Below, piece by piece: positions 19,571-39,134 of a DNA stretch of 64,000 nt. A program made the translations under genes and the position numbers. This DNA comes from Alphaproteobacteria bacterium (GTDB lineage Bacteria > Pseudomonadota > Alphaproteobacteria > UBA8366 > GCA-2717185): NCBI GenBank assembly GCA_040905865.1, contig JBBDQU010000085.1:48295-112294 (forward strand). The letters are read 5' to 3'. The stretch's first letter is position 1. Each line of letters starts with the position of its first letter. The notes beneath the pieces were generated by a model, which made no database searches, was not told where the DNA came from, and was given only the letters and a program-made list of their open reading frames with translations.

Positions 19571-20062
19571 TTAGTCGCGACGATAGAAATGGTACCGCCC
19601 CGGCGCGACGTCCGCGGGCAGGGGCGCTGGCGTCAGGCCGGCCACGCCGTCAAGAGACTGGTCGCAAATCGCGAATCCGCCGGGCAACATCAGGGTTGGG
19701 ATTACCGGACCCAGCAGCGCCACGTTCCGGGCCGTCGACGCCGCATCGCCATACCCGATATCGGCATGCACCAGTATCGCGTTCGGCCCCAGCCGCCTTG
19801 CCGCGTCGAACAGCGTTTCGGGCATCCGGCCCAGAAACAGGTGGGCTTCATCCGGCCGGCAATCGGGATGCGATGCGACTTCCTTGTCAAAGACATAAAT
19901 GTCCTGAACCGGAAAAAGATGGCGCAGATGATCGTAGGTCCGGCCGTTGCCGAGGCCGAGTTCCAGAATATGCCCCTCGCGGCCGCGCAGCATTGACGCC
20001 GCCGCATTCAGACAGCTGCGCTGCGCCTTCAGCCGTTCGATCACCGTGTCGAGCCGCGTCAT
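19571..20062 (-). CDS. Small class I SAM-methyltransferase-like protein
   Basis: Motif I-like ILELGLGNGRT and a later LVHADIG. It is the last gene of the ABC/cNMP operon. The assignment rests on these motifs only. Confidence 0.5.
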   Translation of the reverse strand: MTRLDTVIERLKAQRSCLNAAASMLRGREGHILELGLGNGRTYDHLRHLFPVQDIYVFDKEVASHPDCRPDEAHLFLGRMPETLFDAARRLGPNAILVHADIGYGDAASTARNVALLGPVIPTLMLPGGFAICDQSLDGVAGLTPAPLPADVAPGRYHFYRRD

Positions 20063-20098
20063 TGAACGACCTTTTTTTCTGTCCCTTCTATCATCGGA

Positions 20099-20554
20099 TC
20101 AGGATTGCGACCTGGCGACCGCTTCCCGCAATCGCTCGGTCGTCTGTTCCAGACGGTGCGCCAGTTCCCGCATGATTTCCACCGCGATTTCCGGAAATTC
20201 GACGACCAGACTGAAAAACAGTTCCTTTGAAATGCGCAAGGTCGTCATCTGTACCTTTGCGCGCACCGTCGCCGTTCGCGGCACATCGCACAGGATCGCG
20301 ATTTCGCCGACGACTTCATTCTGTTTCAGCGTGGCGACAACCAGCGGGCCGCCCGGCGTGTCGACGATGACGTCGGCTTCACCGCCGATAATGATATAGG
20401 CCGCATCGCCGGCGTCGCCCTGCTCGAAGACGGTGTCCCCGGCCGCGAACGTCAATCGCTGGCTGGTAAACGCCAGCAGTTTCAGCTTCGACGGATCAAT
20501 TTTCGCAAAAAGCGGAATGTTCCGAAGCAGTTCGACTTCCTGCTGCAAGCTCAT
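20099..20554 (-). CDS. Stand-alone cyclic-nucleotide-binding domain protein
   Basis: CAP-type cNMP domain: LLRNIPLF..., FEQGD.GD..YIII.G, phosphate-binding cassette VGEIAILCDVPRTATVRA. 151 aa with no output domain. Confidence 0.88.
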   Translation of the reverse strand: MSLQQEVELLRNIPLFAKIDPSKLKLLAFTSQRLTFAAGDTVFEQGDAGDAAYIIIGGEADVIVDTPGGPLVVATLKQNEVVGEIAILCDVPRTATVRAKVQMTTLRISKELFFSLVVEFPEIAVEIMRELAHRLEQTTERLREAVARSQS

Positions 20555-20571
20555 GACTTACCTCCTGGGCC

Positions 20572-23238
20572 TCAACCCGCCGCCAGCAATGCCTGAAAAT
20601 CACCATTCGCATTGCGCAGTTCCTCAAACGTGCCGGTTTCAGCGATACGTCCGGATTTCAATACCATAATATGGTCGAAATGTTTTGCATCCGAAACACG
20701 ATTGAGAATCCAGATAACACCCTGCCCTTCGCGCTCCTGAAGTATATTTTCCATGATCCTGTTCTGACTGACGGCGTCGAGATTCGCCGACGCCTCGTTC
20801 AGTAGCAGTATATCCGGGTGCCGGACCAGACCGCGCGCGATTGCCAGTTTCTGGCGCTGGCCCTGCGACAGCCTGCCGCCGCCGTTGCCCGCCGGAAATG
20901 CGAGGCCCGCGGAAACCACGATTTCCCGCAAATCCAGCTCGTCGACGATATCGCCTATCAGACGGCCGGCCTTCGCTTCAGCCTGAGCCTGTCCAAAGGA
21001 CACCTTGCCGAACAGAATATTGTCCTGCAGCGATGCGGCGGCGTTATAGGTATCGGCGTCGAAAAAGGCAATCCTGTCGCGCAGGTCCTCGGGCAGTCCC
21101 TCGGCAAAAACCCGGCGCGCCTCCAGGATCCGGGAGATCATCTGATCGTCGATCAGATCCAGGCGATGACGCGCCTGGATCAGCTTGAAAGGCAGCGAAA
21201 TGAGGCGCTGGCGGTCTGCCGGCGTCACCCCGCCGGCGCCGCGCGCCGCGCGGCCCAGAATAGCCTGAAATTCCGGCAGGTCGTCGGAACCGATAAAACT
21301 GAACTGCTCGAAAAATTCATGGCCAGGCGGCAGATCGGCAAACAGTTCCAGCATTGTCTGCGCAACCTGTTTACCCATTTCCAGGAAATCGTCGCTCAGT
21401 TTCACCTTGTCCAGAACACTCTTGATATAGTCGTTTCCGGCCAGATTCTCCGGATCGAAAGACCCGCCGATCGGCAGGCCGAACAGAATGTTTTCCGCGA
21501 CGGTCGCATTGGAATTGTATTTCTCTGGATCGAAGGGCTCGATCAGCAACGCCACGGCGGGGTCGGCCAGTCGGTCGCGAAGCGCCGAACGCGCGGCCAG
21601 TATCCGCTCGGCAATGTCCGGCTGGCGCGTCGGATCGATCACGCCGCGCAGGCCGAAACGGTATACTTCCTCGTCCATGTCGACCAGCCGCAGGATCTCG
21701 ACCAGTCGCCGTTTCAGGCCTTCCCGGTCTGCCACGCCGGCTTCGTTCAGATCGACCCAGTCCGCGTTGTAATCGAAGGGGGAATTGCCGGTCTCGATTG
21801 ACTCGGCGGGATCGATGGCGTCGCCGATTGACGGGGCGTCGGGGTCCGCCGGCCCGATCATGCGGTGTTTCAGCCCATAGAGAATGTTGTCGCCCACAGA
21901 AGCGGCCTGCAGGTAAGGGCTGGAGCCGACATAGGCGATGCGGCGGCCGGTCACGGCCTCCGGCAGTGTTGCAAGGTCGCTGCCGCCATACACAATCGTG
22001 CCGGAGGTCGGGCTGACCAGTCGCGCCAGAACGGTGCCGAGTTCGGTCTTTCCGCTGCCCCCGTCGCCGACGATGGCGGTATGCGATGCAACCGGCACTG
22101 TGAACGAAATCGCGTCCAGCGCCCGGACGCCGTCTTCGTCGGCAAGGCCTACGTTGTTGACGATCAAATTCCCCCTGATCGGCGATGGCCCGTCTTCGGG
22201 ATCCGCCGTCTGCAGTTCTTCTTCCAGCATGCCCTGCGGCTCGAACTGTTCGACCACCTGCTCGTACTTGATGCGGGCATCTTCCTTCTGCTGATACCAG
22301 GTCAGCAGCTCCTTCCACGGGCTCGCCAGGTCCTTGTAGGCATTCAGGACGGCGACCAGGGCGCCGACCGTGAGGCTGCCCTGAATGACCAGATAACCGC
22401 CGATGGAAAAGAAGAAGAAAGGCGTCAGCTTGTCGATGAAATTATTGAGAAACTTGATAAAAAACTTGCGGCGATAAATTTCGTACCGGATGTCGTAAAT
22501 CGCGCCCAGGCGGTTCGTAAACCGCGATAATTCGAAGAACGATGTATCGTGCGCATGGATTTCGTTGATGCTCGAAACAGATTCGCCCAGATGGTCGGAC
22601 AGGCGGCGGACATGCTGCACACGCAGCTTGCCAAGCGCGTTCACCTTTTTCTGCAGTTTGGGAATTATGTAGCCCTGTATCGGAATCATGCCCGCCGCCG
22701 CCAGGCCGAGCGTCCAGTCCTGCAACATGATATAGCCGACGATCAGGATCAGCTGACCGCCAAAAAACAGCGGGTCGGCGAATGCAATGCCGATGAAACC
22801 GCCCAGCGGCTCGACTTCGGCCGTGATCATCGGGATGATTTCGCCTTGGCTTACCTTTTTGAAATGCGGCGTCGGGAACCGCAGGATCCGCGAATACAGC
22901 TGGTAGCGCATCCGCCGCAGCAGCCGTTCCCCGAGCCGCCCCTTGTAGACGCTGATGTAGTATTTGAACCCGCCGGTAATGAAAACCAGGCCGAGATAGG
23001 CAAAACTCAATACCATAAGATAGGTCAGCTGGCTGACATCTATCGGTATTTCAAAACCGAATATCGGTATTTCAAACGGGGGCGCCGCCCCTTCGCTCTT
23101 GATCGCCCTGTTGATGATGATTTTCGGTAGGTCGAGCGACACAAACAGAAACGGATAAAACGCCAGAATTACGATCAGCAGCGTGATCTGCTGCGGCAGA
23201 CTGTACCGCAGGATATATTTGAAAATGGATTTTTCCAT
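20572..23238 (-). CDS. Atypical ABC exporter (TMD-NBD fusion) with expanded, non-canonical NBD
   Basis: N-terminal 6-TM ABC_membrane-like region, Walker A GDGGSGKT, signature-like LSQGQ, Walker B DILLLNE, H-loop position ILNRVS. About 330 aa lie between the Q-loop and the signature motif. Confidence 0.85.
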   Translation of the reverse strand: MEKSIFKYILRYSLPQQITLLIVILAFYPFLFVSLDLPKIIINRAIKSEGAAPPFEIPIFGFEIPIDVSQLTYLMVLSFAYLGLVFITGGFKYYISVYKGRLGERLLRRMRYQLYSRILRFPTPHFKKVSQGEIIPMITAEVEPLGGFIGIAFADPLFFGGQLILIVGYIMLQDWTLGLAAAGMIPIQGYIIPKLQKKVNALGKLRVQHVRRLSDHLGESVSSINEIHAHDTSFFELSRFTNRLGAIYDIRYEIYRRKFFIKFLNNFIDKLTPFFFFSIGGYLVIQGSLTVGALVAVLNAYKDLASPWKELLTWYQQKEDARIKYEQVVEQFEPQGMLEEELQTADPEDGPSPIRGNLIVNNVGLADEDGVRALDAISFTVPVASHTAIVGDGGSGKTELGTVLARLVSPTSGTIVYGGSDLATLPEAVTGRRIAYVGSSPYLQAASVGDNILYGLKHRMIGPADPDAPSIGDAIDPAESIETGNSPFDYNADWVDLNEAGVADREGLKRRLVEILRLVDMDEEVYRFGLRGVIDPTRQPDIAERILAARSALRDRLADPAVALLIEPFDPEKYNSNATVAENILFGLPIGGSFDPENLAGNDYIKSVLDKVKLSDDFLEMGKQVAQTMLELFADLPPGHEFFEQFSFIGSDDLPEFQAILGRAARGAGGVTPADRQRLISLPFKLIQARHRLDLIDDQMISRILEARRVFAEGLPEDLRDRIAFFDADTYNAAASLQDNILFGKVSFGQAQAEAKAGRLIGDIVDELDLREIVVSAGLAFPAGNGGGRLSQGQRQKLAIARGLVRHPDILLLNEASANLDAVSQNRIMENILQEREGQGVIWILNRVSDAKHFDHIMVLKSGRIAETGTFEELRNANGDFQALLAAG

Positions 23239-23451
23239 GAACCGGCGTAACGACCTTCTGCCGCAGAAACGGTATGCCCCTCTCGAGAATACCTTACCGC
23301 AGCAGTTTGCTATGGTAAACGTTTAGAAATTGCTCATTATTGCCCGGTATCGCTGCAATATTTATGACCAATCATAAGATTCGGAACTTCCGGTTATTAC
23401 ATGATACGTGCCATAGTAGGCGCGCTGTAGCGGGGAAAAAGGGGATAGGGC

Positions 23452-24669
23452 ATGAGCGGAGACCGTCGTCCGCCACGCGTGCTGATATACAGTCATGATT
23501 CGTTCGGGCTCGGCCATCTGCGCCGATGCCGCGCCATCGCGCATGCGATGTGCGAAGAGAATGAAGACCTGTCTGTTCTGATCCTTTCGGGTTCTCCCAT
23601 TATCGGCAGTTTCGATTTCCGCTCGCGGGTGGATTTCGTGCGGGTCCCCGGGGTCATCAAACTGCGGAACGGCGAATACACCTCTCTGACGCTGCCGATG
23701 GCGATCGAGGACGCGATTGAAATGCGGGCCTCGATCATTCGACACACGGCGGAGGTCTTCGACCCCGATATCATGCTGGTGGACAAGGAGCCATTCGGCC
23801 TGCGCGGCGAACTGGCGGAAACGCTCGACGTCATGAAATCGCGCGGCACCCATGTCGTACTGGGGTTGCGTGACGTGCTGGACGATCCCAGACAGCTGAG
23901 AGCGGAGTGGAAGCGAAAGAATGCCGCCGCCGCGCTGAAGGAATATTACGACGAAATCTGGATCTATGGTCTGCCGCAGATATGCGAACCGCTGATCGGC
24001 GTGGACCTGCCGGCGTCAACGCGGCGCAAGACGACCTATACCGGTTACCTGCAACGGTTCGCCGACACCGACACCGCGTCGGAACTGCCCTTCGTGAAGC
24101 ATGGCGACCCGTTCATACTTGTTACGCCCGGCGGCGGCGGCGATGGCGAGGAACTGGTCGACTGGGTCATTCGCGCCTATGAAAGCGCCGCCTCCCTGCC
24201 GCACCGGTCGGTCATTGTGCTGGGCCCCTTCATGCAATCGGATCGCCGCGCGGAATTCATCGCCCGTGTCGACCGGTTGCCGAAGGTTGAGGCCATCACC
24301 TTCGATGCCCATCTGGAAAGCCTGATGGTCAAGGCTTTGGCGGTCGTCGCGATGGGCGGGTACAATACATTCTGCGAAATCCTGTCCTTCGACAAGCGGG
24401 CGCTGATCGTCCCGCGCACGGAGCCGCGCCAGGAACAGCTGATCCGCGCCAGCCGGGCCGCCGAGCTTGGCTTGCTGACCATGCTGCGCGGCGACGCGGA
24501 ACGCAAGGCGGATGTCATGGCAACGGCATTGCGCCATCTGCCGCAACAGAACCTGCCTTCGCACTCGGTCGTACCGGGGCTGCTCGACGGGCTGGAAAAT
24601 GTGAACATCCTGACCCGGCGCGCCCTTGAGCATCAATCCCGCCCGTCCCTGGCCCGGCAGCGCGCGTGA
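23452..24669 (+). CDS. GT-B glycosyltransferase (COG4671/GT28-C-like), copy 1
   Basis: N-terminus RVLIYSHDSFGLGHLRRCRAIAHAM, and a C-terminal ...MGGYNT..E... typical of the MurG-like GT-B C-domain. Confidence 0.75.
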   Translation: MSGDRRPPRVLIYSHDSFGLGHLRRCRAIAHAMCEENEDLSVLILSGSPIIGSFDFRSRVDFVRVPGVIKLRNGEYTSLTLPMAIEDAIEMRASIIRHTAEVFDPDIMLVDKEPFGLRGELAETLDVMKSRGTHVVLGLRDVLDDPRQLRAEWKRKNAAAALKEYYDEIWIYGLPQICEPLIGVDLPASTRRKTTYTGYLQRFADTDTASELPFVKHGDPFILVTPGGGGDGEELVDWVIRAYESAASLPHRSVIVLGPFMQSDRRAEFIARVDRLPKVEAITFDAHLESLMVKALAVVAMGGYNTFCEILSFDKRALIVPRTEPRQEQLIRASRAAELGLLTMLRGDAERKADVMATALRHLPQQNLPSHSVVPGLLDGLENVNILTRRALEHQSRPSLARQRA

Positions 24670-25906
24670 CATCGTGTCTGTTCTTTTCATTCTGAAAGGG
24701 TATCCCCGCCTTTCGGAAACCTTCATCGCCCAGGAAATCCGCGCCCTCGAACAGCGCGGAATCGAAATCGAAATCGCGTCCCTGCGACATCCCACCGATA
24801 CGCAGACCCACCCCATTCATGACGAGATCGCCGCCGGCGTCCTGTACCTGCCGGAATATCTCCATGACGCGCCTGAACGCGTACAGGCGGCACGGTCGGC
24901 TGTGCGGCAAATGCCCGGCTACGCGGCTGCCTATGCCCGCTTTCGCGCGGATTTGCGGCGCGACCCGACCCGCAACAGGATACGGCGTTTCGGACAGGCC
25001 TGCATGCTGGCGCATGAACTGCCCGCCGGCATAACCCGGCTGCACGCGCATTTTCTGCATACGCCGGCTTCGGTTGCGCGGTATGCAGCCATGATGACGG
25101 GACTGCCCTGGAGCTGTTCCGCCCATGCCAAGGATATCTGGACGACGCCGGAATGGGAAATTCGGGAAAAACTGTCGGACCTGGACTGGCTGGTCACCTG
25201 TACCGCGGCGGGGACCGAATACCTTCGCGGGCTGGCGCCGGACCCCGGCGCGGTCTCTCTGGTCTATCATGGCCTCGATTTTTCGCGATTTCCACCGCCC
25301 GGCGCGGCGCGGCCGGCGCTTGACGGATCCGGCGCGCCCGTATCCATCCTCTCTGTGGGCCGGGCCGTTGCAAAGAAGGGCTATGACGAACTCCTGACGG
25401 CGCTCGCCGGGCTGCCGGCGGAAATCAACTGGACATTCCGCCACATCGGCGGCGGACCGCTATTGCCGGCATTGCAGGAACAGGCGCGGCAGCTGTCCCT
25501 CGCCAACCGCATCGAATGGCTGGGCGCCCGGTCGCAGGACGCCGTTCTGGCCGCGCTGCGGGATGCCGACCTTTTCGTGCTGGCGAGCAAGACGACCGCG
25601 GATGGCGACCGCGACGGATTGCCGAACGTCCTGATGGAGGCGCAAAGCCAGGGTCTCGCGGTCGTCTCCACCACGGTTTCCGGTATTCCCGAACTGGTGC
25701 ATCACGGCGTGACGGGATTGCTCGTCCCGCCCGGTGATCCCGACGCCACCGCCGGGGCGCTCGAGGCGCTGATCCGGGACCCGGCCCTGCGACGGCGCCT
25801 CGGGGACGCGGGCCGCCACCGCGTCCATGCCTGTTTTTCAATGGATGACGGCGCCGATTTTTTGGCCGCGCGGTTTCGGCACGACAAGCATTCCGCCGCG
25901 GCGTAA
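24626..25906 (+). CDS. Family-4-type (GT-B) glycosyltransferase, WcaL-like
   Basis: The C-terminal ...DGLPNVLMEAQSQGLAVVST.VSGIPELV.HG.TGLLVPPGD is an E-x7-E-type GT4 motif. An alternative GTG start at 24674 would remove the 44-nt overlap. Confidence 0.8.
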   Translation: MSINPARPWPGSARDIVSVLFILKGYPRLSETFIAQEIRALEQRGIEIEIASLRHPTDTQTHPIHDEIAAGVLYLPEYLHDAPERVQAARSAVRQMPGYAAAYARFRADLRRDPTRNRIRRFGQACMLAHELPAGITRLHAHFLHTPASVARYAAMMTGLPWSCSAHAKDIWTTPEWEIREKLSDLDWLVTCTAAGTEYLRGLAPDPGAVSLVYHGLDFSRFPPPGAARPALDGSGAPVSILSVGRAVAKKGYDELLTALAGLPAEINWTFRHIGGGPLLPALQEQARQLSLANRIEWLGARSQDAVLAALRDADLFVLASKTTADGDRDGLPNVLMEAQSQGLAVVSTTVSGIPELVHHGVTGLLVPPGDPDATAGALEALIRDPALRRRLGDAGRHRVHACFSMDDGADFLAARFRHDKHSAAA

Positions 25907-27024
25907 TGCGCGTCGCATTCTATGCGCCCCTGAAGCCGCCGAATCACCCGGTTCCGTCCGGCGACCGGCGCATGGCGCGCCTGTTACTGGAAGCCATACG
26001 GCGCAGCGGCAACGACGTATCCGTCGCCTCCACGCTGCGGGCATACGACGGCGCCGGCGACACAGACAGGCAGAACCGCATTCGGCGGCGGGGCGAGGCG
26101 CTGGCGCGGCAATTCATCGAACGGAACAGGGAGAACCCGCCGGATATCTGGTTTACCTATCATCTCTATCACAAGGCGCCGGACTGGATCGGCCCCCTGG
26201 TCTGCGACGCCTTCGCCATCCCCTATATCATTGCGGAAGCCAGTATCGCCCCGAAACAGGCCGGCGGCCCCTGGACCGATGGGCTGGCTGCCGTGACCGC
26301 GGCGGTCCGTGGGGCAAGCCGTGTCATCGTCCTGAACCCGGTCGACCGCGAATGCATCGAGCCCTTCACAGGACCGGGCAGCCGGATTGTCGCGCTGCCG
26401 CCCTTTATCGATACCGGGCCGCCACGGCGGGCAGCGGCGGACCGCCAGCGGCATCGGACGACGCTGGCCGCCCGTCATGGCGTCGCGCCCACTTATGTTT
26501 GGATCGCGGTTTCCGCCATGATGCGCTTTGGCGACAAGCTGGAATCGTACCGCGTGCTCGGGCGGGTCATGCAGGGGCTGCGCGACCTGCCGCTGCGCTG
26601 GCTGGTCGCGGGCGACGGTCCGGCGCGGGCGGATGTCGAAGCGCTGCTGGGCGCCGACGTGACCTATCTGGGCGCACTGGGCCCGCACGACATGGATATG
26701 CTGCACGCGGCGGCGGATTTTGCCGTCTGGCCTGCGATGCGGGAAGCCTTCGGCATGGCCATGCTGGAGGCACAGGCGGCGGGTGCGCCGGTCATCGCCG
26801 GCCGCTCTCCCGGCGTGGCGCAGATAATCGCCGATGGCGAAACCGGCATATTGACGCCACCCGGTGACGACATGACTATGGCGGCGGCGATCCGGGCGCT
26901 GGCGAAGGATCCGGAACGACAACGCAGCATGGGACGGGCGGCAATGTTCAAGGCGGAACGTGAGCATGATATCGCGGCGGCGGCAATCGGCATCGGCCGG
27001 CTGTTGCGGGAAGCGGTGTCTTGA
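25906..27024 (+). CDS. Family-4-type (GT-B) glycosyltransferase
   Basis: N-terminus MRVAFYAPLKPPNHPVPSGDR..., C-terminus REAFGMAMLEAQAAGAPVIAG...GETGILTPPGD. The start overlaps the upstream TAA (TAATG). Confidence 0.8.
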   Translation: MRVAFYAPLKPPNHPVPSGDRRMARLLLEAIRRSGNDVSVASTLRAYDGAGDTDRQNRIRRRGEALARQFIERNRENPPDIWFTYHLYHKAPDWIGPLVCDAFAIPYIIAEASIAPKQAGGPWTDGLAAVTAAVRGASRVIVLNPVDRECIEPFTGPGSRIVALPPFIDTGPPRRAAADRQRHRTTLAARHGVAPTYVWIAVSAMMRFGDKLESYRVLGRVMQGLRDLPLRWLVAGDGPARADVEALLGADVTYLGALGPHDMDMLHAAADFAVWPAMREAFGMAMLEAQAAGAPVIAGRSPGVAQIIADGETGILTPPGDDMTMAAAIRALAKDPERQRSMGRAAMFKAEREHDIAAAAIGIGRLLREAVS

Positions 27025-27617
27025 CGATCCTTGCCGTCGTGCGGCACGGCCCGACCCACTGGAACGAAACCGGCATCGTACAGGGCCGCAGCGACATCCC
27101 GCTGAGCGAAACCGGCCGGGCCCTGGTTCGCACGTGGCGTCCCCCGGTGGCGTTTACCGAATACGAATGGGTCTCCAGCCCGCTGCTGCGCGCCGTCGAA
27201 ACCGCAACGATCCTGCGCGGTTCACCGCCGCCCACCGACCATCGCCTGGTCGAAATGGACTGGTCCGAATGGGAAGGCATGTCCCTGCCGGACCTGCGGG
27301 CGCAGATGGGCAACCTCATGAAAGCCTGGGAAGCCAAGGGACTCGATTTCCGTGCGCCCGGCGGCGAAAGTCCGCGCGACGTGCAGGACCGGCTGCGACC
27401 GTTTCTGGCGGAACGGGCCCGCGCCGGTACGCCCACAGTCATGGTCTGCCACAAGGGCGTGATCCGGGCGCTTTACGCCATGGCGGTTGCCTGGGACATG
27501 ACCGACAAGCCGCCGGAAAAGCTGCTCGACAATTGCACCCATACGTTCCGGCTCGACCCCCACGGGGCGCCTGTCCCGCACCAGTTGAACATCCCCATGA
27601 CAACGCCGGAAGTATGA
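27021..27617 (+). CDS. Histidine phosphatase (phosphoglycerate-mutase-like) family protein
   Basis: Catalytic RHG motif in ILAVVRHGPTHWN, plus a later ...VCHKGVIRAL... (second His). TTG start within a TTGA overlap. Confidence 0.85.
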   Translation: MTILAVVRHGPTHWNETGIVQGRSDIPLSETGRALVRTWRPPVAFTEYEWVSSPLLRAVETATILRGSPPPTDHRLVEMDWSEWEGMSLPDLRAQMGNLMKAWEAKGLDFRAPGGESPRDVQDRLRPFLAERARAGTPTVMVCHKGVIRALYAMAVAWDMTDKPPEKLLDNCTHTFRLDPHGAPVPHQLNIPMTTPEV

Positions 27618-29553: not shown

Positions 29554-30064
29554 CCTGTCCCTGCGGTATCCGGCGCGCAGCCTCTATGGCGATTACCTGC
29601 GCGCCCTGGTCGGCGTCGTGATCCTCGGCACGCCGTTTTTCTATGCCGGGAGCAGCCCGGTTGTCGCGACGATTCTCGGTTCGCTGCTGCTGCTATTTGT
29701 CGGCTTCGGCGTGCGGACCTATCTTCGTCAGATCACCACGATCAGCGTTTCTCCGGACGCCATCGCCACAATCGGCCCCTTCGGCAAACGCATTGCATGG
29801 GACGATATCAGCCGTGTCGACCTGAAATATTTCTCCACGCGACGGGAAAAATCCGCAAGACGCGGCGACGGTTGGATGCAGATGAAGATCTGCGGTCCCA
29901 CGGGGTGTATGCAGCTTGATTCGTCTTTGCCACAATTTAACGATCTTGCCGCTAGAGTTGCCGCGGCGGCATTCCGGAACGGGGCGGAGATGACGGATAC
30001 AACGGTGGAGAACTTCACGACGCTTGGCGTTACCGTGACGTTCCCGGAAGAGGCTACAGAATGA
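29546..30064 (+). CDS. Small membrane protein (2 TM plus cytoplasmic domain), unknown function
   Basis: Two hydrophobic helices ([13 protein letters not shown]..., [18 protein letters not shown]) are followed by a soluble ~100-aa tail. It overlaps both neighbours: 8 nt upstream and ATGA downstream. Confidence 0.6.
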
Positions 30065-31959: not shown

Positions 31960-33875
31960 GATACTGGTTGAAACGCAGCGCAATTGCGATTGCCGCGATT
32001 ATCATGCCTGTGGTTGGCGCCGCCGCCATGACCTATACGGAAACGCCGGGCCTGGCGCCAATGGTGGAAAGCGGCGACCTGCCGCCTGTGGCAGAGCGGC
32101 TGCCGCAGGTTCCGCTGGTCGCGCCGATGAACAAGCCAGGCCAGACGATCGGACGGCATGGCGGCGCTATAAATACCATCATGGCCAGCGCCAAGGATGT
32201 CCGGCTGATGGTGGTTTACGGCTATGCCCGGCTGGTAAAATACGGCCGGGACCTGGAACTGGCGCCCGACCTGCTGGAACGGATCGATATCGAAGAGGGC
32301 CGGTCCTTCACGATGCATCTGCGGCCGGGCCATAAATGGTCGGACGGTGAACCGTTCACGACCGAGGATTTCCGGTATTACTGGGAAGATGTCGCCAATA
32401 ACGAGTTTCTGTCGCCGACAGGGCCGACCACGGTCCTGCGTGTCGGAACCGAATTGCCGAAAGTCACCATTATCGACGCCACGACCGTTCGCTACGAATG
32501 GTCGAAGCCCAACCCGGCCTTTCTGCCGGCGCTCGCCAGCGCCACGCCGCTGTATATCTACCGTCCGTCACATTACCTGAAGCAGTTCCACCGGCGCTAC
32601 GTCGATGAAACGAAACTGAACGAAATGGCCCTGGAACAGGGCCAGCGGAACTGGGCAGCCCTGCATAACAAGGAAGACCACCAGTACCGTAACCAGAACA
32701 TAAAACTGCCGTCCCTGCAGCCCTGGATCAATACGACGGAAGGCCCGGCGGAACGATTCGTCTTCACGCGTAACCCGTATTACCACAAGGTCGATCCGGG
32801 CGGCCGGCAACTGCCCTATATCGACAGCGTCGTGATGAATATCGCCAGCGGCAAGATCATTCCGGCCAAGGTCGGTACCGGTCAGTCCGACCTGCAGGCG
32901 CGCTACCTGCGCTTCGACAACTTCACCTTCCTGAAACGAAACGAGAAGAAAAGCGGCTATTCGACCTATCTGTGGCGTATCGCCAAGGGGTCCCACCTGA
33001 CCCTGTTTCCCAATCTGAACGCCAACGACCCGGTCTGGCGCAAACTGTTGCGAGATGTGCGGTTCCGCCGGGCGATTTCGATGGGGATCAATCGCCACGA
33101 ACTGAATCAGGTGATTTACTACGGGCTTGCGCTGCCGGCGCAGAATACCGTGCTGCCGGAAAGCCCCCTGTTCAAGGAGGAGTATCAGAAGGCCTGGGCG
33201 CAGTATGACATCGCGGCCGCGAACCGGCTGCTGGACGAAATCGGCCTGACCGGCCGTGACCACCGCGGCATCCGCCTGCTGCCCGACGGACGGCCGCTGG
33301 AAATCATCGTCGAATCGACCGGCGAAAGCACCGAGGAAGCGGATGTCCTGGAACTGATGACGGACAGTCTGGCGCTGGCCGGCGTCAAGCTGCTGACCAA
33401 ACCGTCGCAGCGCGAGGTCATGCGCAACCGCATCTATGCGGGCGACACCATCATGGCGATCTCTTCGGGCCTCGAAAACGGTGTCCCGAATGCGGATATG
33501 GACCCGGAAAATCTCGCGCCGATCCACCAGATCCATTACCAGTGGCCGAAATGGGGCCAGCACGCCGAAACCATGGGCCGGATGGGCGAACCCGTTGACC
33601 TGCCGGCGGCCGCCCGGCTGGTCGAGCTGCGCAAGCAATGGTACCGGTCCACCAATACCGCCGACCGCCGGAAAATCTGGCACGAGATGCTCGCGATCAA
33701 TGCCGAACAGGTCTTCACCATCGGCCTGATTTCGGGCGTGCTGCAGCCGGTCGTCGTGCGGGACACGCTGCGGAACGTTCCCCAGAAAGGCATCTACAAC
33801 TGGGATCCCGGTGCGCATTTCGGAATCTACGAGCCCGACAGTTTCTGGTTCCTCGAAGAAACCGCAGGCAGATAG
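31956..33875 (+). CDS. ABC substrate-binding protein, family 5 (peptide/opine/nickel type, YejA-like size)
   Basis: Signal peptide [24 protein letters not shown], 639 aa, SBP_bac_5-like body. ATG 31956 overlaps the upstream TGA (ATGA). Confidence 0.85.
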
Positions 33876-33891
33876 GGCAGGGCACAGCGGA

Positions 33892-34890
33892 ATGTTTGGG
33901 TACATCATCCATCGACTACTCGTCATGATCCCGACGCTGATCGTTATCAGCGCGCTGGTCTTCATTATAATCCAGCTGCCGCCCGGGGATTATTTCACCA
34001 CCTATATGAACGAGCTGCAAAGCCGCGGCGAAGCCGTCGATGCGGAAAAACTTGAATTCATCAAGGAGCAGTACGGCTTCGGCAAACCGATGTGGGAACA
34101 GTATTTCGTCTGGGTCTTCGGCCTGCTGCAAGGCGATCTTGGCTATTCCTTCGAGTTCAGCCGTCCGGTTTCGGAAGTCGTCGGCGACCGGCTCGCTCTC
34201 AGTTTCATTGTCTCGTTCACAACGATCCTCTTCACCTGGATCGTGGCCTTTCCCATCGGCGTCTATTCCGCCGTCCGGCAGTACAGTATCGGCGATTACA
34301 GCCTGACCTTCCTCGGCTTTCTCGGCCTGGCGACGCCGAACTTCCTGCTGGCGCTGGTGCTGCAATGGCTGGCCTACAGTTATTTCGGCACGTCGATCGG
34401 CGGCCTGATGGACCCGGAATACATCGACCAGCCCTGGACCATGGGCAAGTTCCTGTCCGTGATGGAGCATCTCTGGGTGCCGGTCCTCGTCATCGGCACA
34501 TCGGGCACGGCCGGCATGATCCGCCGGCTGCGCGCCAACCTGCTGGACGAACTGCACAAGCAGTACGTCACCACGGCGCGCGCCAAGGGCCTGCCGCCCG
34601 GCAGGGCGCTGGTAAAATACCCGCTGCGCATGGCGCTGAATCCCTTCATCGCCGATATCGGCAACCTGCTGCCGGAAGTCATTTCAGGGGCGGCGATCGT
34701 GTCCATCGTGCTGTCGCTGCCGACCACCGGCCCGATGCTGCTGAACGCGCTGCAGAGCCAGGACATGTACCTCGCCGGGTCCTTCCTGATGTTCCTGGCG
34801 ACGCTGACCGTGATCGGGACGCTGTTATCCGACCTGGCGCTTGCGATGCTGGATCCGCGAATCCGGCTTGGCGGAGGAGGCACGCGATGA
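33892..34890 (+). CDS. ABC permease (DppB/YejB-like)
   Basis: N-terminus MFGYIIHRLLVMIPTLIVISALVFIIIQLPPGDY, and the EAA-type loop ..YVTTARAKGLP... Confidence 0.9.
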   Translation: MFGYIIHRLLVMIPTLIVISALVFIIIQLPPGDYFTTYMNELQSRGEAVDAEKLEFIKEQYGFGKPMWEQYFVWVFGLLQGDLGYSFEFSRPVSEVVGDRLALSFIVSFTTILFTWIVAFPIGVYSAVRQYSIGDYSLTFLGFLGLATPNFLLALVLQWLAYSYFGTSIGGLMDPEYIDQPWTMGKFLSVMEHLWVPVLVIGTSGTAGMIRRLRANLLDELHKQYVTTARAKGLPPGRALVKYPLRMALNPFIADIGNLLPEVISGAAIVSIVLSLPTTGPMLLNALQSQDMYLAGSFLMFLATLTVIGTLLSDLALAMLDPRIRLGGGGTR

Positions 34891-36059
34891 CCGATTCGCC
34901 AATTCCCCATTACGTCAACAAGGCCGAATTCGACCCGAATACGGTCGTCACCCTGTCGCCGGAGCAGGAACGCTTCTACATGGCGTCGCAGTGGCGGCTG
35001 ATGTGGTGGAAGCTGAAGCGCCACAAGCTGGCCGTCGTCAGCGGCATCTTCCTGCTGCTGGTCTATCTGTCGATCGTGATCAGCGAGATCCTGGCGCCCT
35101 ACAACCTGCATGCCCGCAATACCGAATACCTGTATGCGCCGCCGCAATCGGTGCACCTGTTTCATGAAGGCAGCTTCGTCGGCCCCTTTGTCTATGGCAT
35201 GACGCCCAGCCTCAACATGGAACAGCTGCAATGGACCTATGCGGAGGATACCTCGCGCGTGCAGCCGATCCGGTTTTTCTGCACCGCCAATGATTACAAT
35301 GGCGCGACGTACGAATTCTGGGGCCTGTTCCCCGCCAGTTTCCACCTGTTCTGTCCGGCGGCGGGCCAGCAGCTCTTCCTGCTGGGCACCGACCGGCTGG
35401 GCCGCGACGTGCTGAGCCGCATCCTCTACGGCGCGCGGATATCGCTCACCGTCGGGCTGATCGGCATAACGATCAGCTTCGTCATGGGGCTGACCATCGG
35501 CGGGCTTGCCGGGTATTACGGCGGCATGGTCGATACCGTCGTGCAGCGCATCATCGAAATCATCCGCTCCTTCCCGTCCCTGCCGTTATGGATGGCGCTG
35601 TCCGCGATCCTGCCGGTGACCTGGAGTCCGATCCTCGTCTTCGCCGGCATTACCGTCATCCTCGGCATGCTCGACTGGCCGGGGCTGGCGCGCGCGGTGC
35701 GGTCCAAGTTGCTGGCGCTGCGCGAGGAGGATTTCTGCACCGCCGCCGAACTGATGGGCGCCAGGCCGGGCCGGATCATCGGGCGGCACCTGCTGCCCAG
35801 CTTCATGAGCCATCTGATCGCCTCCGCGACCCTGTCGATTCCGAGCATGATCCTGGGCGAGACGGCGCTGAGCTTCCTTGGCCTCGGGCTGCGGCCGCCG
35901 ATCACCAGCTGGGGCGTGCTGCTGAACGAGGCGCAGAACATCAACGTGGTCGCGCTGTATCCCTGGCTGATGTACCCGGTCGTGCCGGTCATCCTGATCG
36001 TGCTGGCCTTCCAGTTCTTCGGCGACGGGTTGCGCGACGCCGCCGACCCCTACAAGTAA
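34887..36059 (+). CDS. ABC permease (DppC/YejE-like)
   Basis: ..LLGTDRLGRDVLSRILYGARISL.. and ..FCTAAELMGARPGRII..HLLP.. are typical of DppC-type permeases. ATGA coupling at 34887. Confidence 0.9.
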   Translation: MTDSPIPHYVNKAEFDPNTVVTLSPEQERFYMASQWRLMWWKLKRHKLAVVSGIFLLLVYLSIVISEILAPYNLHARNTEYLYAPPQSVHLFHEGSFVGPFVYGMTPSLNMEQLQWTYAEDTSRVQPIRFFCTANDYNGATYEFWGLFPASFHLFCPAAGQQLFLLGTDRLGRDVLSRILYGARISLTVGLIGITISFVMGLTIGGLAGYYGGMVDTVVQRIIEIIRSFPSLPLWMALSAILPVTWSPILVFAGITVILGMLDWPGLARAVRSKLLALREEDFCTAAELMGARPGRIIGRHLLPSFMSHLIASATLSIPSMILGETALSFLGLGLRPPITSWGVLLNEAQNINVVALYPWLMYPVVPVILIVLAFQFFGDGLRDAADPYK

Positions 36060-36068
36060 GGGGCCGGG

Positions 36069-37424
36069 TTAACGCCCGACGAGCACGACGGTATCGACAG
36101 GGTTTTCGACGCCGGCGATGCCCTCGGCCCGCCGCGCGAGGCAGGGGGCTGGCGGCGTATAGCCCTGGCTCTGCGCGAGCGCATAGGATTCGCCCGTCGT
36201 CAGGGCCGTGGTCCGCGCCGACCGGTTATGTTTTTCCAGCTTGGCGCAGAGGTTCACCGGGTCGCCGATCACCGTGTATTCCAGCCGCGTTTCATCGCCG
36301 ACCGCGCCGAACACGATCCGGCCGGTGACGACCGCCATGCCGATTTCCACCGGCTTGCGGCCCGCCGCGACGCGGTCCGCCCGCCAGACGATGAAGGCCT
36401 TATGCAGGTCGTCGACTGCGCGCATGGCGTCGGCGGCATAGGTATCGCTGGGCAGCACCGCGCCGAAGGTCGCCAGGATTCCGTCGCCCAGGAACTTGTC
36501 GATATTGCCGCCATGCGCCTGGATCACCGGCACCATCCGCGATTCATACTCGGTCAGCAGGGCGATGAGATCCGAAGGCGCCAACTCGTTCGACAGCGCG
36601 GTGAAACCGCGGATATCGGTCATCAGGATGGCGGCTTCGCGGGCCTCGCCCTGCCCGGGCCGGATCCGGGTGGCCGAATGGGTGATCTTGTCGGCGATCT
36701 CCGGCGAGAAGAATCGCGCCAGGTCCTTCGCCGCAGCCGCCTCGATCACCGACCGTTCGAGCAGCCGCCGCGCGCGGTACAGCGCGACCGACAGGATCGC
36801 GGTGACGATCAGGATGGAAATGATCTTGTCGAATTCCGCGCCGAGCAGGATGGCGTTCGAGGTCATATAGGCGACGTAGTCGCGCGTGATCATGTTGTCG
36901 TGCGGGTCGACGGTAATCACATAGCCGACCATCAGCAGCCAGCCCCCCGCGGCGACCAGCCCGGCAAGGATGACATAGCGCGCCTCGAACCGCAGCGCCC
37001 GCAGCACGATGAAGATGAAGACATAGAGCAGGGTGGGCGCCTTCAGATAGAAGGATGCCGGCTGGTCGTACTGGATATGGAAGCTCCAGATCACGGTCAG
37101 CAGCAGGGAAAGGTCGGCCACCACCGACAGCGCCAGGAACCAGCCGGGCAGCCGGATGCGGTAGGACAGCCAGATCCGGAAGACGGAGAACACGAAATAC
37201 ACGGCCAGCGCGATGCCGACCGGGGTCTGCCAGGGAACCACCGTCGATGTCTTCGGCGATATCGCATACAGGGCGCCGAAGATCAGCACGACGCCGAACT
37301 GGACCCAGGCGATCAGCCGTTCGCTGGCATCCTCCTGATTCGCGATCGTTTCCCGCACCCGTTCCGGCACATTGAGGCCGCTGTCGCCGCGGTTGAAGAT
37401 AGCGGGCAGAACCGGTCGTTTCAT
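36069..37424 (-). CDS. Membrane-anchored class III adenylate/guanylate cyclase
   Basis: N-terminal ~6 TM helices, then a CHD domain: ILMTDIRGFTALS, KFLGDGILATFG, YTVIGDPVNLCAKLE. Start at ATG 37424. Confidence 0.88.
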   Translation of the reverse strand: MKRPVLPAIFNRGDSGLNVPERVRETIANQEDASERLIAWVQFGVVLIFGALYAISPKTSTVVPWQTPVGIALAVYFVFSVFRIWLSYRIRLPGWFLALSVVADLSLLLTVIWSFHIQYDQPASFYLKAPTLLYVFIFIVLRALRFEARYVILAGLVAAGGWLLMVGYVITVDPHDNMITRDYVAYMTSNAILLGAEFDKIISILIVTAILSVALYRARRLLERSVIEAAAAKDLARFFSPEIADKITHSATRIRPGQGEAREAAILMTDIRGFTALSNELAPSDLIALLTEYESRMVPVIQAHGGNIDKFLGDGILATFGAVLPSDTYAADAMRAVDDLHKAFIVWRADRVAAGRKPVEIGMAVVTGRIVFGAVGDETRLEYTVIGDPVNLCAKLEKHNRSARTTALTTGESYALAQSQGYTPPAPCLARRAEGIAGVENPVDTVVLVGR

Positions 37425-37443
37425 CCTTGGCGCTTTCGTCTGT

Positions 37444-38304
37444 TCAGGCGCGCTTTTCGAGCCACAGGCTCGATTCCATCGCGCCCGCGAGCAGGGGCAG
37501 CCGCCCGGCGACGCTAGCACGGACTGCATCCGACATGCGGGTCACAACATGGTGACTCCCGAACAGGACCTGCCAGGCGCCGCCCGCCAGCAGCGCCGCC
37601 ACGCCGAGCTGTTCGTTATAGCCGCGCCAGTCCCATTCGGCGGGGTAGGCGTCCGGCAGGAAAATGTCGTGGAAATGCACCACCACGCCGGCCGGCAGGA
37701 TCGGCAGCACGGTGTTGAGCAGCAGGTCCACGTCGCTGCCGGGCATCAGGATATGGCTGGAATCGATTGCGAGAATATCGCCCGCCGTCAGCCCCTCGAA
37801 AGGGGACAGCCCGGCTTCCTGCACCGTGCGGCGGTCCAGCGTCACGCTGGACAATCCGTCCAGCACGGCCCGGGGGGCCGGATCGATGGCCAGGATTTCG
37901 GTCGCCAGCGCGCCGTCCTTCACGGCGCGGGCGAAGAAGCGGGTCGAATGGCCGGAGCCGATTTCGACGATCCGCCGGGGCGCGTAGCGGCGCGCCATGG
38001 TATAGGCCATCGCACCGTCGAGCCGGGGAAACCAGTCCTGGTACCAGCGGGGCGCCGGCGCCGGCGCGTCGTCGCCAATGGCCAGCAGGCCGTCGGCGTA
38101 ACCGTCCATTGTTTTCAGCCACCCTTCGAAACCCGGCGTGCCGGCGTCCAGCAGCGCCTCGCTGGCGGGGTAGCCGCGCCGCGCGACCGAGGGCGGCATG
38201 TCGCCGGCATAGCGGTAGGGGATGAAGAACCCCTGCGCGTTCAGCCCCAGGACGGTCGGCAATCCGGCCCGGAGCCGCCGCCGCCATGCCTGAAACGGCG
38301 TCAT
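37444..38304 (-). CDS. Class I SAM-dependent methyltransferase (Methyltransf_24-like)
   Basis: Motif I IVEIGSGHSTRFFA, with downstream ILAIDSSH and VVVHFHDIF. 4-nt overlap with the upstream MBL gene. Confidence 0.7.
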   Translation of the reverse strand: MTPFQAWRRRLRAGLPTVLGLNAQGFFIPYRYAGDMPPSVARRGYPASEALLDAGTPGFEGWLKTMDGYADGLLAIGDDAPAPAPRWYQDWFPRLDGAMAYTMARRYAPRRIVEIGSGHSTRFFARAVKDGALATEILAIDPAPRAVLDGLSSVTLDRRTVQEAGLSPFEGLTAGDILAIDSSHILMPGSDVDLLLNTVLPILPAGVVVHFHDIFLPDAYPAEWDWRGYNEQLGVAALLAGGAWQVLFGSHHVVTRMSDAVRASVAGRLPLLAGAMESSLWLEKRA

Positions 38305-39134
38305 GGCCGCAGCGTCAGCCCTTCACGGGCGACGACGGTGCCCGGCCGCAGCGCGTCCGCCTGGCGCGCGACCTCATCCATGAAATCGTCATTGTGATTC
38401 GGGTCATGATGGAAGATCACCAGCGTCTTCACCCGCGCCGCATCGGCCAGCTTCGCGCCTTCCTGCCAGGTCGAGTGGCCGAACCCCTTGAATCGCGGGT
38501 ATTCCTCGTCCGTATAGGTCGCGTCGTAAATCATGATATCGGCGTCCCGCACCAGCGCCGCGATGTTGTCGTCGATCCGGCCCTCGAAATGTTCCGTATC
38601 GGTGATGTAGCAGATCGCCCGCCCGTCGAATTCGATCCGGTAGCCGGTCGCCCGGTTGGGATGGTTCAGCGGTCCGGTGCGGATCGTCACCCCGTCGCCG
38701 GGGGTCAGCACCGCGCCGCATTCGAAGTCGTTATAGGTCACCCCGGCCTGGAAGATATCCGGCGGCACGGGAAACAGCGGCGCCATCATCATTTCGACCA
38801 GCACCTGGCGCAGGGTATGTTCCGGCAGCAGATGGCCGGCCCACAGCCGCACGATATTGCCCGGAATGAACATCGGGATGAAGAAGGGCAGCCCGCAGAC
38901 ATGGTCGAAATGGGTATGGGTGAAGAACAGGTCGATTTCGCCCGGCCCCAGCGGCACCAGCCTGTTGCCCAGCTTGCGCAGCCCGGTGCCGCCGTCGAAG
39001 ATGATCCGGCGGTCACCGCACATGACTTCCAGACAGGAGGTGTCGCCGCCATACCGGATCGTTTCCGGACCGGGACAGGCGATACTGCCGCGCACGCCCC
39101 AGAAGGTGACGCTGAATTCCTGCTGCTCCGTCAT
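38301..39134 (-). CDS. MBL-fold metallo-hydrolase
   Basis: N-terminus FWGVRGS..., metal motif THTHFDH (HxHxDH), and later His/Asp ligands (..ITDTEH.., ..FHHDP..). Confidence 0.85.
   Translation of the reverse strand: MTEQQEFSVTFWGVRGSIACPGPETIRYGGDTSCLEVMCGDRRIIFDGGTGLRKLGNRLVPLGPGEIDLFFTHTHFDHVCGLPFFIPMFIPGNIVRLWAGHLLPEHTLRQVLVEMMMAPLFPVPPDIFQAGVTYNDFECGAVLTPGDGVTIRTGPLNHPNRATGYRIEFDGRAICYITDTEHFEGRIDDNIAALVRDADIMIYDATYTDEEYPRFKGFGHSTWQEGAKLADAARVKTLVIFHHDPNHNDDFMDEVARQADALRPGTVVAREGLTLRP

Follow-up and report, generated by a model that had tools for sequence, protein, structure and literature searches.

A stretch of 64,000 nucleotides of alphaproteobacterial DNA (contig JBBDQU010000085.1; hereafter the window) carries at positions 19571-39134 genes for glycosyltransferases, an ATP-binding cassette (ABC) exporter and an ABC importer, together with genes for a stand-alone cyclic-nucleotide-binding (CNB) protein, a class III cyclase and a metallo-beta-lactamase (MBL)-fold hydrolase. 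An earlier account made from the letters alone, here called the sequence-only reading, had divided these genes into three blocks, a central glycan and importer array flanked by an exporter operon on the left and a cyclase operon on the right, and had proposed that a cyclic nucleotide monophosphate (cNMP) gates the synthesis or export of a glycoconjugate. Comparison with other genomes confirms that the three blocks are not chance neighbours, which is shown by their conservation and not by the window alone. At the centre of the conserved set stands the pair of CNB protein and exporter. Here, we describe the gene content of the locus, its distribution and the evidence that bears on a functional link between cyclic nucleotides and glycoconjugate export.

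Gene Content of the Locus

Genes at 19571-39134 were called by Pfam and NCBIfam scans of the open reading frames (ORFs) of the window, and every gene that the sequence-only reading had listed was found at, or a few codons from, the place where it had been put. The locus consists of the following features (aa, amino acids; GT, glycosyltransferase; SAM, S-adenosylmethionine; TM, transmembrane):

19571-20062, minus strand: Methyltransf_17 SAM methyltransferase, 163 aa, last gene of the exporter operon (PF12692, E 1e-48)
20099-20554, minus strand: CNB protein (the "reader"), 151 aa (Pfam cNMP_binding alone)
20572-23238, minus strand: atypical ABC exporter, 888 aa (ABC_membrane and a split ABC_tran)
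23239-23451: divergent spacer, promoter region, 213 bp
23452-24669, plus strand: GTa, a GT-B, GT28-C-like glycosyltransferase, "RedA" in rhizobial annotation (Pfam Glyco_tran_28_C)
24674-25906, plus strand: GT4b glycosyltransferase, "RedB", with GTG start at 24674 (Pfam Glycos_transf_1)
25906-27024, plus strand: GT4c, second GT4 glycosyltransferase (Pfam)
27021-27617, plus strand: histidine phosphatase of branch 1 (Pfam His_Phos_1, E 4e-39)
27639-28774, plus strand: GTd, second GT28-C-like glycosyltransferase, "RedAh", with ATG start at 27639 (Pfam)
28777-29553, plus strand: CE4/NodB-like deacetylase-like protein, 258 aa (homologue annotation and conserved residues)
29546-30064, plus strand: small two-TM membrane protein (weak NCBIfam STM3941-family match)
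30061-31959, plus strand: fused double ATPase of an Opp/Dpp-type importer, "OptD" (two ABC_tran and oligo_HPY)
31947-33875, plus strand: family-5 periplasmic solute-binding protein, "OptA" (SBP_bac_5, E 7e-55)
33892-34890, plus strand: importer permease 1 (BPD_transp_1 and synteny)
34887-36059, plus strand: importer permease 2 (OppC_N and BPD_transp_1)
36069-37424, minus strand: six-TM class III cyclase (the "writer"), 451 aa (Pfam Guanylate_cyc)
37444-38304, minus strand: Methyltransf_24, a class I SAM methyltransferase (Pfam)
38301-39134, minus strand: MBL-fold phosphodiesterase-type hydrolase, candidate "eraser" (Lactamase_B_2, motif THTHFDH)

The start codon of the membrane protein (ATG 29546) overlaps with the stop codon of the gene before it. 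For permease 1 the most likely start is ATG 33892, the point at which alignments with its homologues begin. The stop codons of the last permease and the convergent cyclase gene lie 9 nt apart, as the sequence-only reading had noted. None of the 17 locus proteins reaches a curated NCBIfam cut-off, including OptA, for which no NCBIfam model does so. A search with Rfam found no RNA family in the whole window, and thus no riboswitch.

Conservation of the Gene Set

The first sign of conservation came from a search of plasmid DNA, which led to plasmid pRL11 of Rhizobium johnstonii 3841, where the same families occur in another order (cyclase, importer, three glycosyltransferases, a 904-aa exporter and the CNB gene). 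Annotated 40-kb views of Sinorhizobium meliloti pSymB and of Phyllobacterium contain the same set together with an MBL gene, which lies beside the GT4c and deacetylase-like genes, and the set is also present in Azospirillum lipoferum and Sulfitobacter, with an exporter of about 1,040 aa. A scan of one genome per species, anchored on an alignment of the exporter, confirmed at least 579 matches, from which 80 loci with 46-76% identity, mostly of Alphaproteobacteria, were kept. Together with eight plasmid loci they form a survey set of 88, onto which 18 window proteins were mapped by tblastn. The CNB gene was found in 81 of the 88 exporter loci, the glycosyltransferases GTa, GTd, GT4b and GT4c in 71, 69, 68 and 65, respectively, the importer ATPase in 60, the phosphatase in 55 and the deacetylase-like protein in 53, while the small membrane protein (48/88) and Methyltransf_17 (45/88, usually directly after the CNB gene) occur in about half.

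In window-like loci the limit of 10 kb on the flanks kept the cyclase, Methyltransf_24 and MBL genes out of view, and the right block was thus approached from the cyclase and MBL side. Class III cyclases, MBL and Methyltransf_24 genes recur beside the set in at least six gene orders. The sequence-only reading had named co-occurrence of the three blocks in other genomes as the test of its grouping, and they do co-occur, across Alphaproteobacteria and some Betaproteobacteria and in many gene orders. The right border of the conserved unit is the MBL gene, and the genes beyond it differ between genomes. The left operon is abutted by a gene for a PAS_7/HisKA/HATPase histidine kinase (17655-19541), which was found in only two of the 88 loci, one of them the closest relative (L009, 60% identity). 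The kinase is for this reason probably no part of the unit, and serves as an internal control for the linkage counts. Further upstream (10522-17670) lies a hopanoid-type set with a squalene-hopene cyclase, two squalene/phytoene synthase homologues, a GT2 and a PhyH dioxygenase, which is not conserved beside the locus in other genomes.

In R. johnstonii (L001, 2432-4222) the Methyltransf_17 gene has as its neighbour a gene for an ABC exporter of 596 aa, with Pfam matches to ABC_membrane and ABC_tran that are both complete. Pairing of this protein with the atypical exporter is conceivable, but it was not seen in the other loci examined. Genes for MscS-type mechanosensitive channels lie at the locus edge in S. 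meliloti (L002, 1-798) and Sulfitobacter (L007, 10030-12285), which hints at a possible link with osmotic adaptation. In S. meliloti 1021 (pSymB, L008, 818000-848000) the cyclase (10468-11816) and the exporter (23685-26436) are each split into two overlapping ORFs, while other S. meliloti strains have an intact 449-aa cyclase and 903-aa exporter. The split ORFs look like frameshifts, so this reference strain may lack the system, and such a loss could explain why the system has gone unstudied.

The CNB Protein and the Adjacent Exporter

The only Pfam match of the CNB protein is cNMP_binding at residues 35-117, with no helix-turn-helix, and its best matches in the PDB are the CNB domains of the protein kinases PKG and PKA. 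Orthologues in S. meliloti and in strain 3841 (Rlv3841) are labelled as Crp/Fnr transcription factors. This assignment was rejected because of the missing DNA-binding domain, and the NCBIfam CRP model gives 55 bits at a cut-off of 266 and aligns over profile positions 15-137 of 214 only. The label "Crp/Fnr regulator" is, judged from these profiles, a recurrent misannotation, and the view of the protein as a reader without DNA-binding output stands. The phosphate-binding cassette, GEIAILCDVPRTATVRA in the window protein, had been described as intact, and it is conserved throughout the family: among 82 members the Gly is found in 82, the Glu in 77, the Arg in 82, the Thr/Ser in 76 and the Ala in 79.

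The CNB gene lies on the same strand as the exporter gene and directly downstream of it in all 81 pairs, with a median gap of 43 nt, and this adjacency is invariant down to 32% identity of the exporter. Moreover, the two proteins are fused in frame in six loci (A. lipoferum, Ruegeria, Sulfitobacter, a plasmid of Hyphomicrobiales and two metagenome-assembled genomes). Fusion and invariant adjacency are strong evidence that reader and exporter work together, and it is very probable that the reader acts on the exporter.

The exporter combines an N-terminal six-helix ABC_membrane domain and a C-terminal ATPase domain in one chain, as in type-IV exporters. An AlphaFold2 model (predicted local distance difference test score 81.9) retrieved TmrAB, PCAT1 and MsbA in Foldseek, with target-normalised template-modelling scores of 0.6-0.65. 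The ATPase domain is conserved and, by its motifs, non-canonical throughout the family, which fits the remark of the sequence-only reading that the ATPase site "looks regulatory". In an alignment of 124 members the Walker B motif reads hhhhNE in 102, with Asp in only five, and the H-loop position is Asn in 94 and His in four. The Q-loop Gln is absent and replaced by Gly, Pro or Ser, and the signature is LS[QPST][AVG]Q instead of LSGGQ. The Walker A Lys is retained in 109, the full GxxxSGK followed by Ser or Thr in only 54, and rhizobial, Azospirillum and roseobacter members have lost Walker A entirely.

Pfam splits the ABC_tran match of the window protein into residues 374-463 and about 783-885. 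The intervening "insert" of about 260 aa (residues ~430-800) is an internal repeat and not foreign sequence. The repeated segment, which runs from the Q-loop strand via "xNILFG" into the helical subdomain, is present in three copies, with starts at about residues 434, 566 and 723. In hhalign, copy 3 matches copy 2 with a probability of 96.8% (E 3e-10), and copy 1 aligns over 18-23 columns with about 76%. We know of no ABC protein with such a triplicated Q-loop/helical segment.

The Cyclase and the MBL-Fold Hydrolase

The cyclase had been described as a six-TM class III enzyme. The Pfam match and six hydrophobic segments in the hydropathy profile support the class and the topology, and the length is taken as 451 aa instead of 486, since every orthologue starts at M36. 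D270, D314, K310, T384 and N391 are invariant in 115 orthologues and the transition-state Arg is replaced by Lys (K395) in 114 of them, with residue roles assigned by eye against the class III motif and not by structural alignment. The Lys/Thr specificity pair points to ATP as the substrate and cyclic AMP (cAMP) as the product.

Orthologues of 451 aa with at least 57% identity are abundant, and twelve appear, to judge from longest contigs of equal length, to share contigs with exporter orthologues. In three neighbourhoods (59-71% identity) the MBL, in part Methyltransf_24, and cyclase genes converge on importer, membrane protein, deacetylase-like, GTd and phosphatase genes; beyond the MBL gene follow dnaK/dnaJ in one, and an MFS transporter and a response regulator in the others. 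Elsewhere the arrangement varies. In L054 and L076 the CNB gene is directly followed by a cyclase gene, in L005 a cyclase gene lies before the exporter, MBL and Methyltransf_24 genes, with or without a cyclase gene, are divergent from the exporter-CNB pair in L082, L085, L097, L099 and L104, and an MBL-cyclase pair converges on GT4c and the deacetylase-like gene in L134. In L140 the genes for a DUF3095 protein, exporter, CNB, MBL and cyclase form one co-directional array, and L136 has a similar array.

For the MBL gene, metagenome loci of at least 4 kb were scanned and binned by the identity of the MBL protein. Other cluster genes lie nearby in 18 of 20 loci at 57% identity or above, in 3/12 at 50-57%, in 4/11 at 40-50% and in none of eight below 40%, and Methyltransf_24 adjoins the MBL gene in 14 of the 20 close loci. 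The ligands H73, H75, D77, H78, H158, D179, H220, H242 and H243 are invariant in the alignment (A2), as in a binuclear metallo-hydrolase, and a PDB profile search returned RNase Z, ElaC, BA1088, 6kns and PhnP. By these profiles the protein is placed in the RNase Z/ElaC/PhnP/YhfI-like branch of phosphodiesterases and not among class II cAMP phosphodiesterases. Fold likeness within the MBL superfamily does not separate a cNMP phosphodiesterase from RNase Z/PhnP-type enzymes. Of the profile searches that the sequence-only reading had proposed, cNMP_binding, Guanylate_cyc and Lactamase_B_2 gave matches and the class II model PF02112 did not. Its suggestion that the MBL protein might be an eraser thus keeps the HxHxDH motif, the Lactamase_B_2 match and the metal ligands, and takes the role itself from gene context.

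A DUF3095 protein is encoded beside rhizobial-type loci and L140 (L001, 4944-6170; L006, 4140-5294; L140, 5230-6387). It is annotated as "putative adenylyl cyclase" in Rlv3841 (pRL110058), and its "ADIVGST...FGGDGA" resembles class III metal-binding motifs by eye; a shallow profile comparison with cyclases gave no significant match, and it is not claimed as a cyclase here. In L136 (5832-9415) the exporter is shortened (616 aa, no ABC_membrane match) and lies immediately downstream of a gene for an IS66-family transposase, and the array is followed by a second cyclase with a 2Fe-2S ferredoxin domain and by a pentapeptide-repeat protein.

Glycan Genes, Importer and Divergent Spacer

The glycan genes encode four GT-B glycosyltransferases of non-processive type, a phosphatase and a deacetylase-like protein. 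In the phosphatase the catalytic residues R8, H9, R57, E78 and H144 are conserved among 50 homologues, so that the RHG/R/E/H core is kept. The deacetylase-like protein has no match in Pfam and no sequence match in the PDB; homologues in four genomes are annotated by PGAP as "polysaccharide deacetylase family", and the residues conserved among 54 homologues (D36-D38, H86, H90, H176, D178, H221 and H222) fit the five CE4 motifs by eye. Methyltransf_17 matches PDB entry 3iht (E 9e-34). The S. meliloti homologue of GTa is named RedA (UniProt Q9X6W3), as is pRL110050 (redA), and the origin of this name could not be traced in the literature.

No priming phosphoglycosyl transferase, Wzx/Wzy/Wza-Wzc, GT2 synthase or Wzm/Wzt is encoded by any gene at 19571-39134; a GT2 gene does occur at 15730-16908, as part of the hopanoid-type neighbourhood. 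A Wzx/Wzy-, synthase- or Wzm/Wzt-dependent polysaccharide locus was therefore rejected. With these genes absent, a small oligosaccharide or glycolipid seems more likely than the "envelope glycan" of the sequence-only reading, a label that is not established. By analogy with the mycothiol, bacillithiol, pgl or glycolipid pathways, to whose NCBIfam families all matches here are below threshold, four such glycosyltransferases with a phosphatase and a deacetylase probably fit the stepwise assembly of a small amino-sugar product on a phosphorylated or lipid acceptor. Rhizobial versions of the locus add a nucleotide-sugar dehydrogenase and a PF14099 polysaccharide lyase, which hint at a uronic-acid component, the fragments of which could enter via the Opp-type importer.

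The spacer between the exporter and GTa had been described as a 213-bp AT-rich divergent region, and its G+C content is indeed 48%, compared to 63% for the region. The divergent layout of exporter and glycosyltransferase genes is found in 56 other loci. The 8-mer CTATGGCA, with at most one mismatch, occurs in 30 of these 56 spacers (L009-L086), and in many of these it precedes the start of the glycosyltransferase gene by about 35-50 nt; exact copies are found in 14 spacers compared to at most eight in shuffles. It often extends to the palindrome CTATGSCATAG, of which the window copy (23409-23416) retains only a half-site, and the palindrome is not enriched in the window (9 matches, 7.7 expected). 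The 8-mer may be an operator and matters only as a cross-locus feature; there is no regulator gene in the locus. A scan of the window for promoter and terminator consensus sequences gave nothing above shuffles.

Requirement in Rhizobium Nodules

Genetic evidence comes from insertion sequencing (INSeq) of Rhizobium leguminosarum Rlv3841, in which genes were classed as essential (ES), defective (DE), neutral (NE) or advantaged (AD) (Wheatley et al., bioRxiv 10.1101/2020.05.07.082560). Orthologues were assigned by gene order on pRL11, with which five published descriptions agree. The genes and the published classes (same source) are:

pRL110046, CNB reader: rhizosphere DE, root NE, nodule bacteria ES, bacteroid ES
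pRL110047, exporter: rhizosphere NE, root NE, nodule bacteria ES, bacteroid DE
pRL110048, redAh: NE at all four stages
pRL110049, redB (GT4b): rhizosphere NE, root NE, nodule bacteria ES, bacteroid ES
pRL110050, redA: NE at all four stages
pRL110051-54, optC to optD; of these pRL110053-54 (optA, optD): rhizosphere AD, root AD, nodule bacteria NE, bacteroid NE
pRL110055, cyaA: NE at all four stages
pRL110056, sugar dehydrogenase: rhizosphere NE, root NE, nodule bacteria DE, bacteroid ES
pRL110058, DUF3095 protein

The pattern shared by pRL110046, pRL110047 and pRL110049 indicates that reader, exporter and one glycosyltransferase have a common requirement at the nodule stage. The original study listed pRL110047 merely as "permease of ABC exporter" and pRL110056 as O-antigen related, and proposed no mechanism (Wheatley et al., bioRxiv 10.1101/2020.05.07.082560).

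Relation to Known Systems

The sequence-only reading knew of no described system of this composition, and none was found in searches of the literature, NCBIfam or Pfam; apart from the INSeq tables, the literature gave one analogue, HetC. Among ABC exporters with a CNB domain, HetC of Nostoc PCC 7120 is the only one known to be characterised, and it is the nearest analogue of the window system. In HetC a CNB domain is likewise coupled to a type-IV ABC exporter; the protein needs this domain for its function in vivo, and the domain has been reported to bind guanosine tetraphosphate (ppGpp) in vitro (PMC10986499). HetC has a C39 peptidase domain, an essential catalytic Glu in its ATPase and an N-terminal CNB domain, and exports peptide. 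The window system, in contrast, has no peptidase, a CNB protein that is separate or fused at the C-terminus, an expanded non-canonical ATPase domain and glycan genes as neighbours. Stand-alone CNB proteins encoded beside ABC exporters are also described by TIGR03896 ("bacteriocin-type transport-associated"), for which the window protein scores only 42.6 bits at a cut-off of 161.

Several glycan machines are gated by cyclic di-GMP (c-di-GMP), among them BcsA-PilZ, Alg44, PelD and PgaCD. There, as proposed here, a second messenger acts post-translationally on a glycan-releasing membrane machine, with writer and eraser genes nearby. The window system differs in using a cyclic mononucleotide and a CNB domain instead of PilZ or an I-site, an ABC exporter instead of a synthase, and a dedicated importer. 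MsbA, NdvA (ChvA) and PglK transport lipids, cyclic glucans and lipid-linked oligosaccharides, respectively. The exporter resembles them in fold and domain order, and in its tie to cytoplasmic GT4 glycan assembly as in the pgl pathway, but is set apart by its NCBIfam scores (197 vs a cut-off of 602, 152 vs 733 and 84 vs 1000), the duplication of about 260 aa and the replaced catalytic residues. In the synthesis of mycothiol and bacillithiol a GT4 enzyme acts on a phosphorylated acceptor, followed by dephosphorylation and N-deacetylation. The same logic would account for the joint presence of GT4, histidine phosphatase and deacetylase-like genes; however, the MshA and BshA models give 60-65 bits at cut-offs of 274-462, ligase and acetyltransferase genes are absent, and the locus has two further GT28-like enzymes, the exporter and the importer.

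In S. meliloti the class III cyclases CyaD1, CyaD2 and CyaK and the CNB receptor Clr influence surface polysaccharides and symbiosis (PMC5498481). The shared elements are class III cyclases and a receptor with a CNB domain, but Clr is a DNA-binding regulator of the Crp family, whereas the window receptor lacks a DNA-binding domain and is tied to a transporter. The Clr targets (exo genes and the nodP2-smb21248 cluster) belong to a different locus of pSymB (PMC5498481). The combination of modules, the duplicated non-canonical ATPase domain of the exporter family and the layout of export plus re-import look unreported.

A Model for the System and Its Rivals

The reading that we favour, and consider on the whole probable, is that the locus is one functional unit of four modules, in which cAMP, acting through the CNB protein, would gate the export of a small glycoconjugate, with input from linked cyclases and retrieval by the Opp-type importer. 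The first module comprises the four glycosyltransferases, the histidine phosphatase, the CE4-like deacetylase and the membrane protein. Acting in or at the cytoplasm, these would make a small glycoconjugate, which is probably an oligosaccharide or glycolipid that contains amino sugars and is assembled on a lipid or phosphorylated acceptor. The MsbA-type exporter, partnered by its dedicated single-domain CNB protein, would then move the product across the inner membrane. The membrane cyclase, as a source of cAMP, and the RNase Z/PhnP-like MBL phosphodiesterase would set the local cNMP level, and the cNMP-loaded reader would switch the exporter on or off post-translationally. Finally, the importer would take the product or a derivative back up. 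We infer which ligand the reader binds, in which direction it controls the exporter, what the cargo is, that the MBL protein acts as eraser and what the importer takes up. Beyond the link of reader and exporter, the cargo is probably the product of the adjacent glycosyltransferase operon, and the linked cyclases may well supply the ligand, while it is rather doubtful that the MBL protein is a cNMP phosphodiesterase. The proposal of the sequence-only reading, gating of glycoconjugate synthesis or export by a cNMP, is supported in this form by the conservation, the fusions and the INSeq data, without its envelope label.

Several observations weigh against this model. For the ligand, the cargo and the regulation, support is comparative and genetic only. 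The predicted cNMP ligand is derived from the cassette sequence, and since the CNB domain of HetC has been reported to bind ppGpp, an intact cassette by itself does not prove binding of cAMP. The exporter may not pump at all, since its Walker B Asp, Q-loop Gln and H-loop His have all given way to other residues. Exporter-CNB pairs without glycosyltransferases within 10-20 kb (L004, L005, L076 and L082) mean that what is carried need not in every case be made by these glycosyltransferases. At rhizobial, betaproteobacterial and some other loci the resemblance of the cyclases to that of the window is confined to the catalytic domain (27-31% identity). By this measure they are not orthologues of the window cyclase, and the linkage is to class III cyclase function, with different cyclases recruited. 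Rhizobia moreover carry many cyclase paralogues, and the neutral class of cyaA, redAh and redA at every INSeq stage sets these genes apart from the reader, the exporter and redB. For the MBL protein there is no match to Pfam PDEase_II (PF02112) at E 0.01, the NCBIfam model NF041851 for cyclic-nucleotide phosphodiesterases gives 52 bits at a cut-off of 400 and covers the C-terminal half only, and in S. meliloti and Phyllobacterium the gene sits with the glycan genes and not with the cyclase.

The main rival takes the ABC protein for a nucleotide-binding membrane switch or conduit, as are CFTR and SUR, that couples the cNMP state to another activity; its outputs could be the glycosyltransferases, the importer or envelope remodelling, and the product would exit, if at all, elsewhere. 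Such a role would suit an ATPase domain with a degenerate signature and replaced catalytic residues in a would-be homodimer with two identical sites, the more so where Walker A is lost as well, and the extra duplicated helical region could be an interaction platform; the pairs without nearby glycosyltransferases also agree with it. Yet the TM domain is a complete and conserved type-IV exporter fold, most members retain the Walker A Lys and the catalytic Glu, and the tight linkage to a biosynthetic operon without another exporter fits transport, so we regard the switch as unlikely. It is also rather improbable that the exporter-CNB pair forms a unit with the glycan and importer genes alone, while the cyclase, MBL and methyltransferase genes are no writer/eraser set. 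The MBL protein and the two methyltransferases would then modify the glycoconjugate, perhaps by cleavage of a phosphodiester or nucleotide-linked intermediate or by O-methylation of sugars, and cNMP would come from cyclases elsewhere. The closeness of the MBL protein to RNase Z, ElaC and PhnP, its failure with the class II models, its position abutting GT4c and the deacetylase-like gene in S. meliloti and Phyllobacterium, its nearly constant pairing with a methyltransferase and the dispensable linked cyclase of Rhizobium are all in line with this. However, L136 and L140 place the MBL gene between CNB and cyclase genes in the same direction, with no glycosyltransferase among the cluster homologues detected, loci of the L082/L099 type have MBL, cyclase and exporter-CNB genes with no glycosyltransferases in reach, and cyclase domains recur beside the exporter-CNB pair in at least six arrangements.

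Two other explanations have very little probability. That the cNMP genes are a Pycsar-type anti-phage system lying merely beside a glycan locus finds some basis in domain-level PADLOC matches (cyclase to PycC, 74 bits; CNB to the CNB part of PycTIR effectors, 58 bits). Membership was rejected, since the matches are at domain level only and neither a TIR nor a membrane effector domain is present in the CNB protein. In all 81 pairs, moreover, the CNB either directly follows the ABC exporter or is fused to it, in the window a distance of 15 kb separates the cyclase from the reader, and the Lys/Thr specificity residues are of the purine (adenylate) type. The set also keeps its synteny with metabolic genes in hundreds of species and is needed in nodules, unlike a gene of a defence island. 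Nor does a chance adjacency of the three blocks in a single genome seem credible in view of their conservation through many rearrangements and the gene fusion; after comparison nothing speaks for it, and only the histidine kinase and the upstream hopanoid genes appear incidental.

A more speculative reading, to which we give little weight, is that the ABC protein is a cyclic-nucleotide-gated valve rather than an ATP-driven pump, in which the triplicated Q-loop/helical region docks the CNB protein and cAMP times the release of the oligosaccharide. In this reading the Opp-type importer would close an autocrine or public-good circuit of glycan export and re-import that rhizobia would need in nodules.

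Implications

Discussions of bacterial cAMP almost always treat it as a transcriptional signal that acts via Crp-type regulators, and the main messenger known to control glycan release post-translationally is c-di-GMP. The exporter family would offer a natural case of ABC exporters in which the catalytic motifs are altered systematically and a subdomain of the ATPase is duplicated. For Rhizobium, the model provides a testable hypothesis for pRL110046, pRL110047, pRL110049 and pRL110056, which transposon sequencing has already marked as required in nodule bacteria and bacteroids. If the model is true, a dedicated cAMP reader wired to an exporter would be a new class of output for cyclic mononucleotides; the exporter has at least about 580 confirmed matches in a collection of one genome per species.

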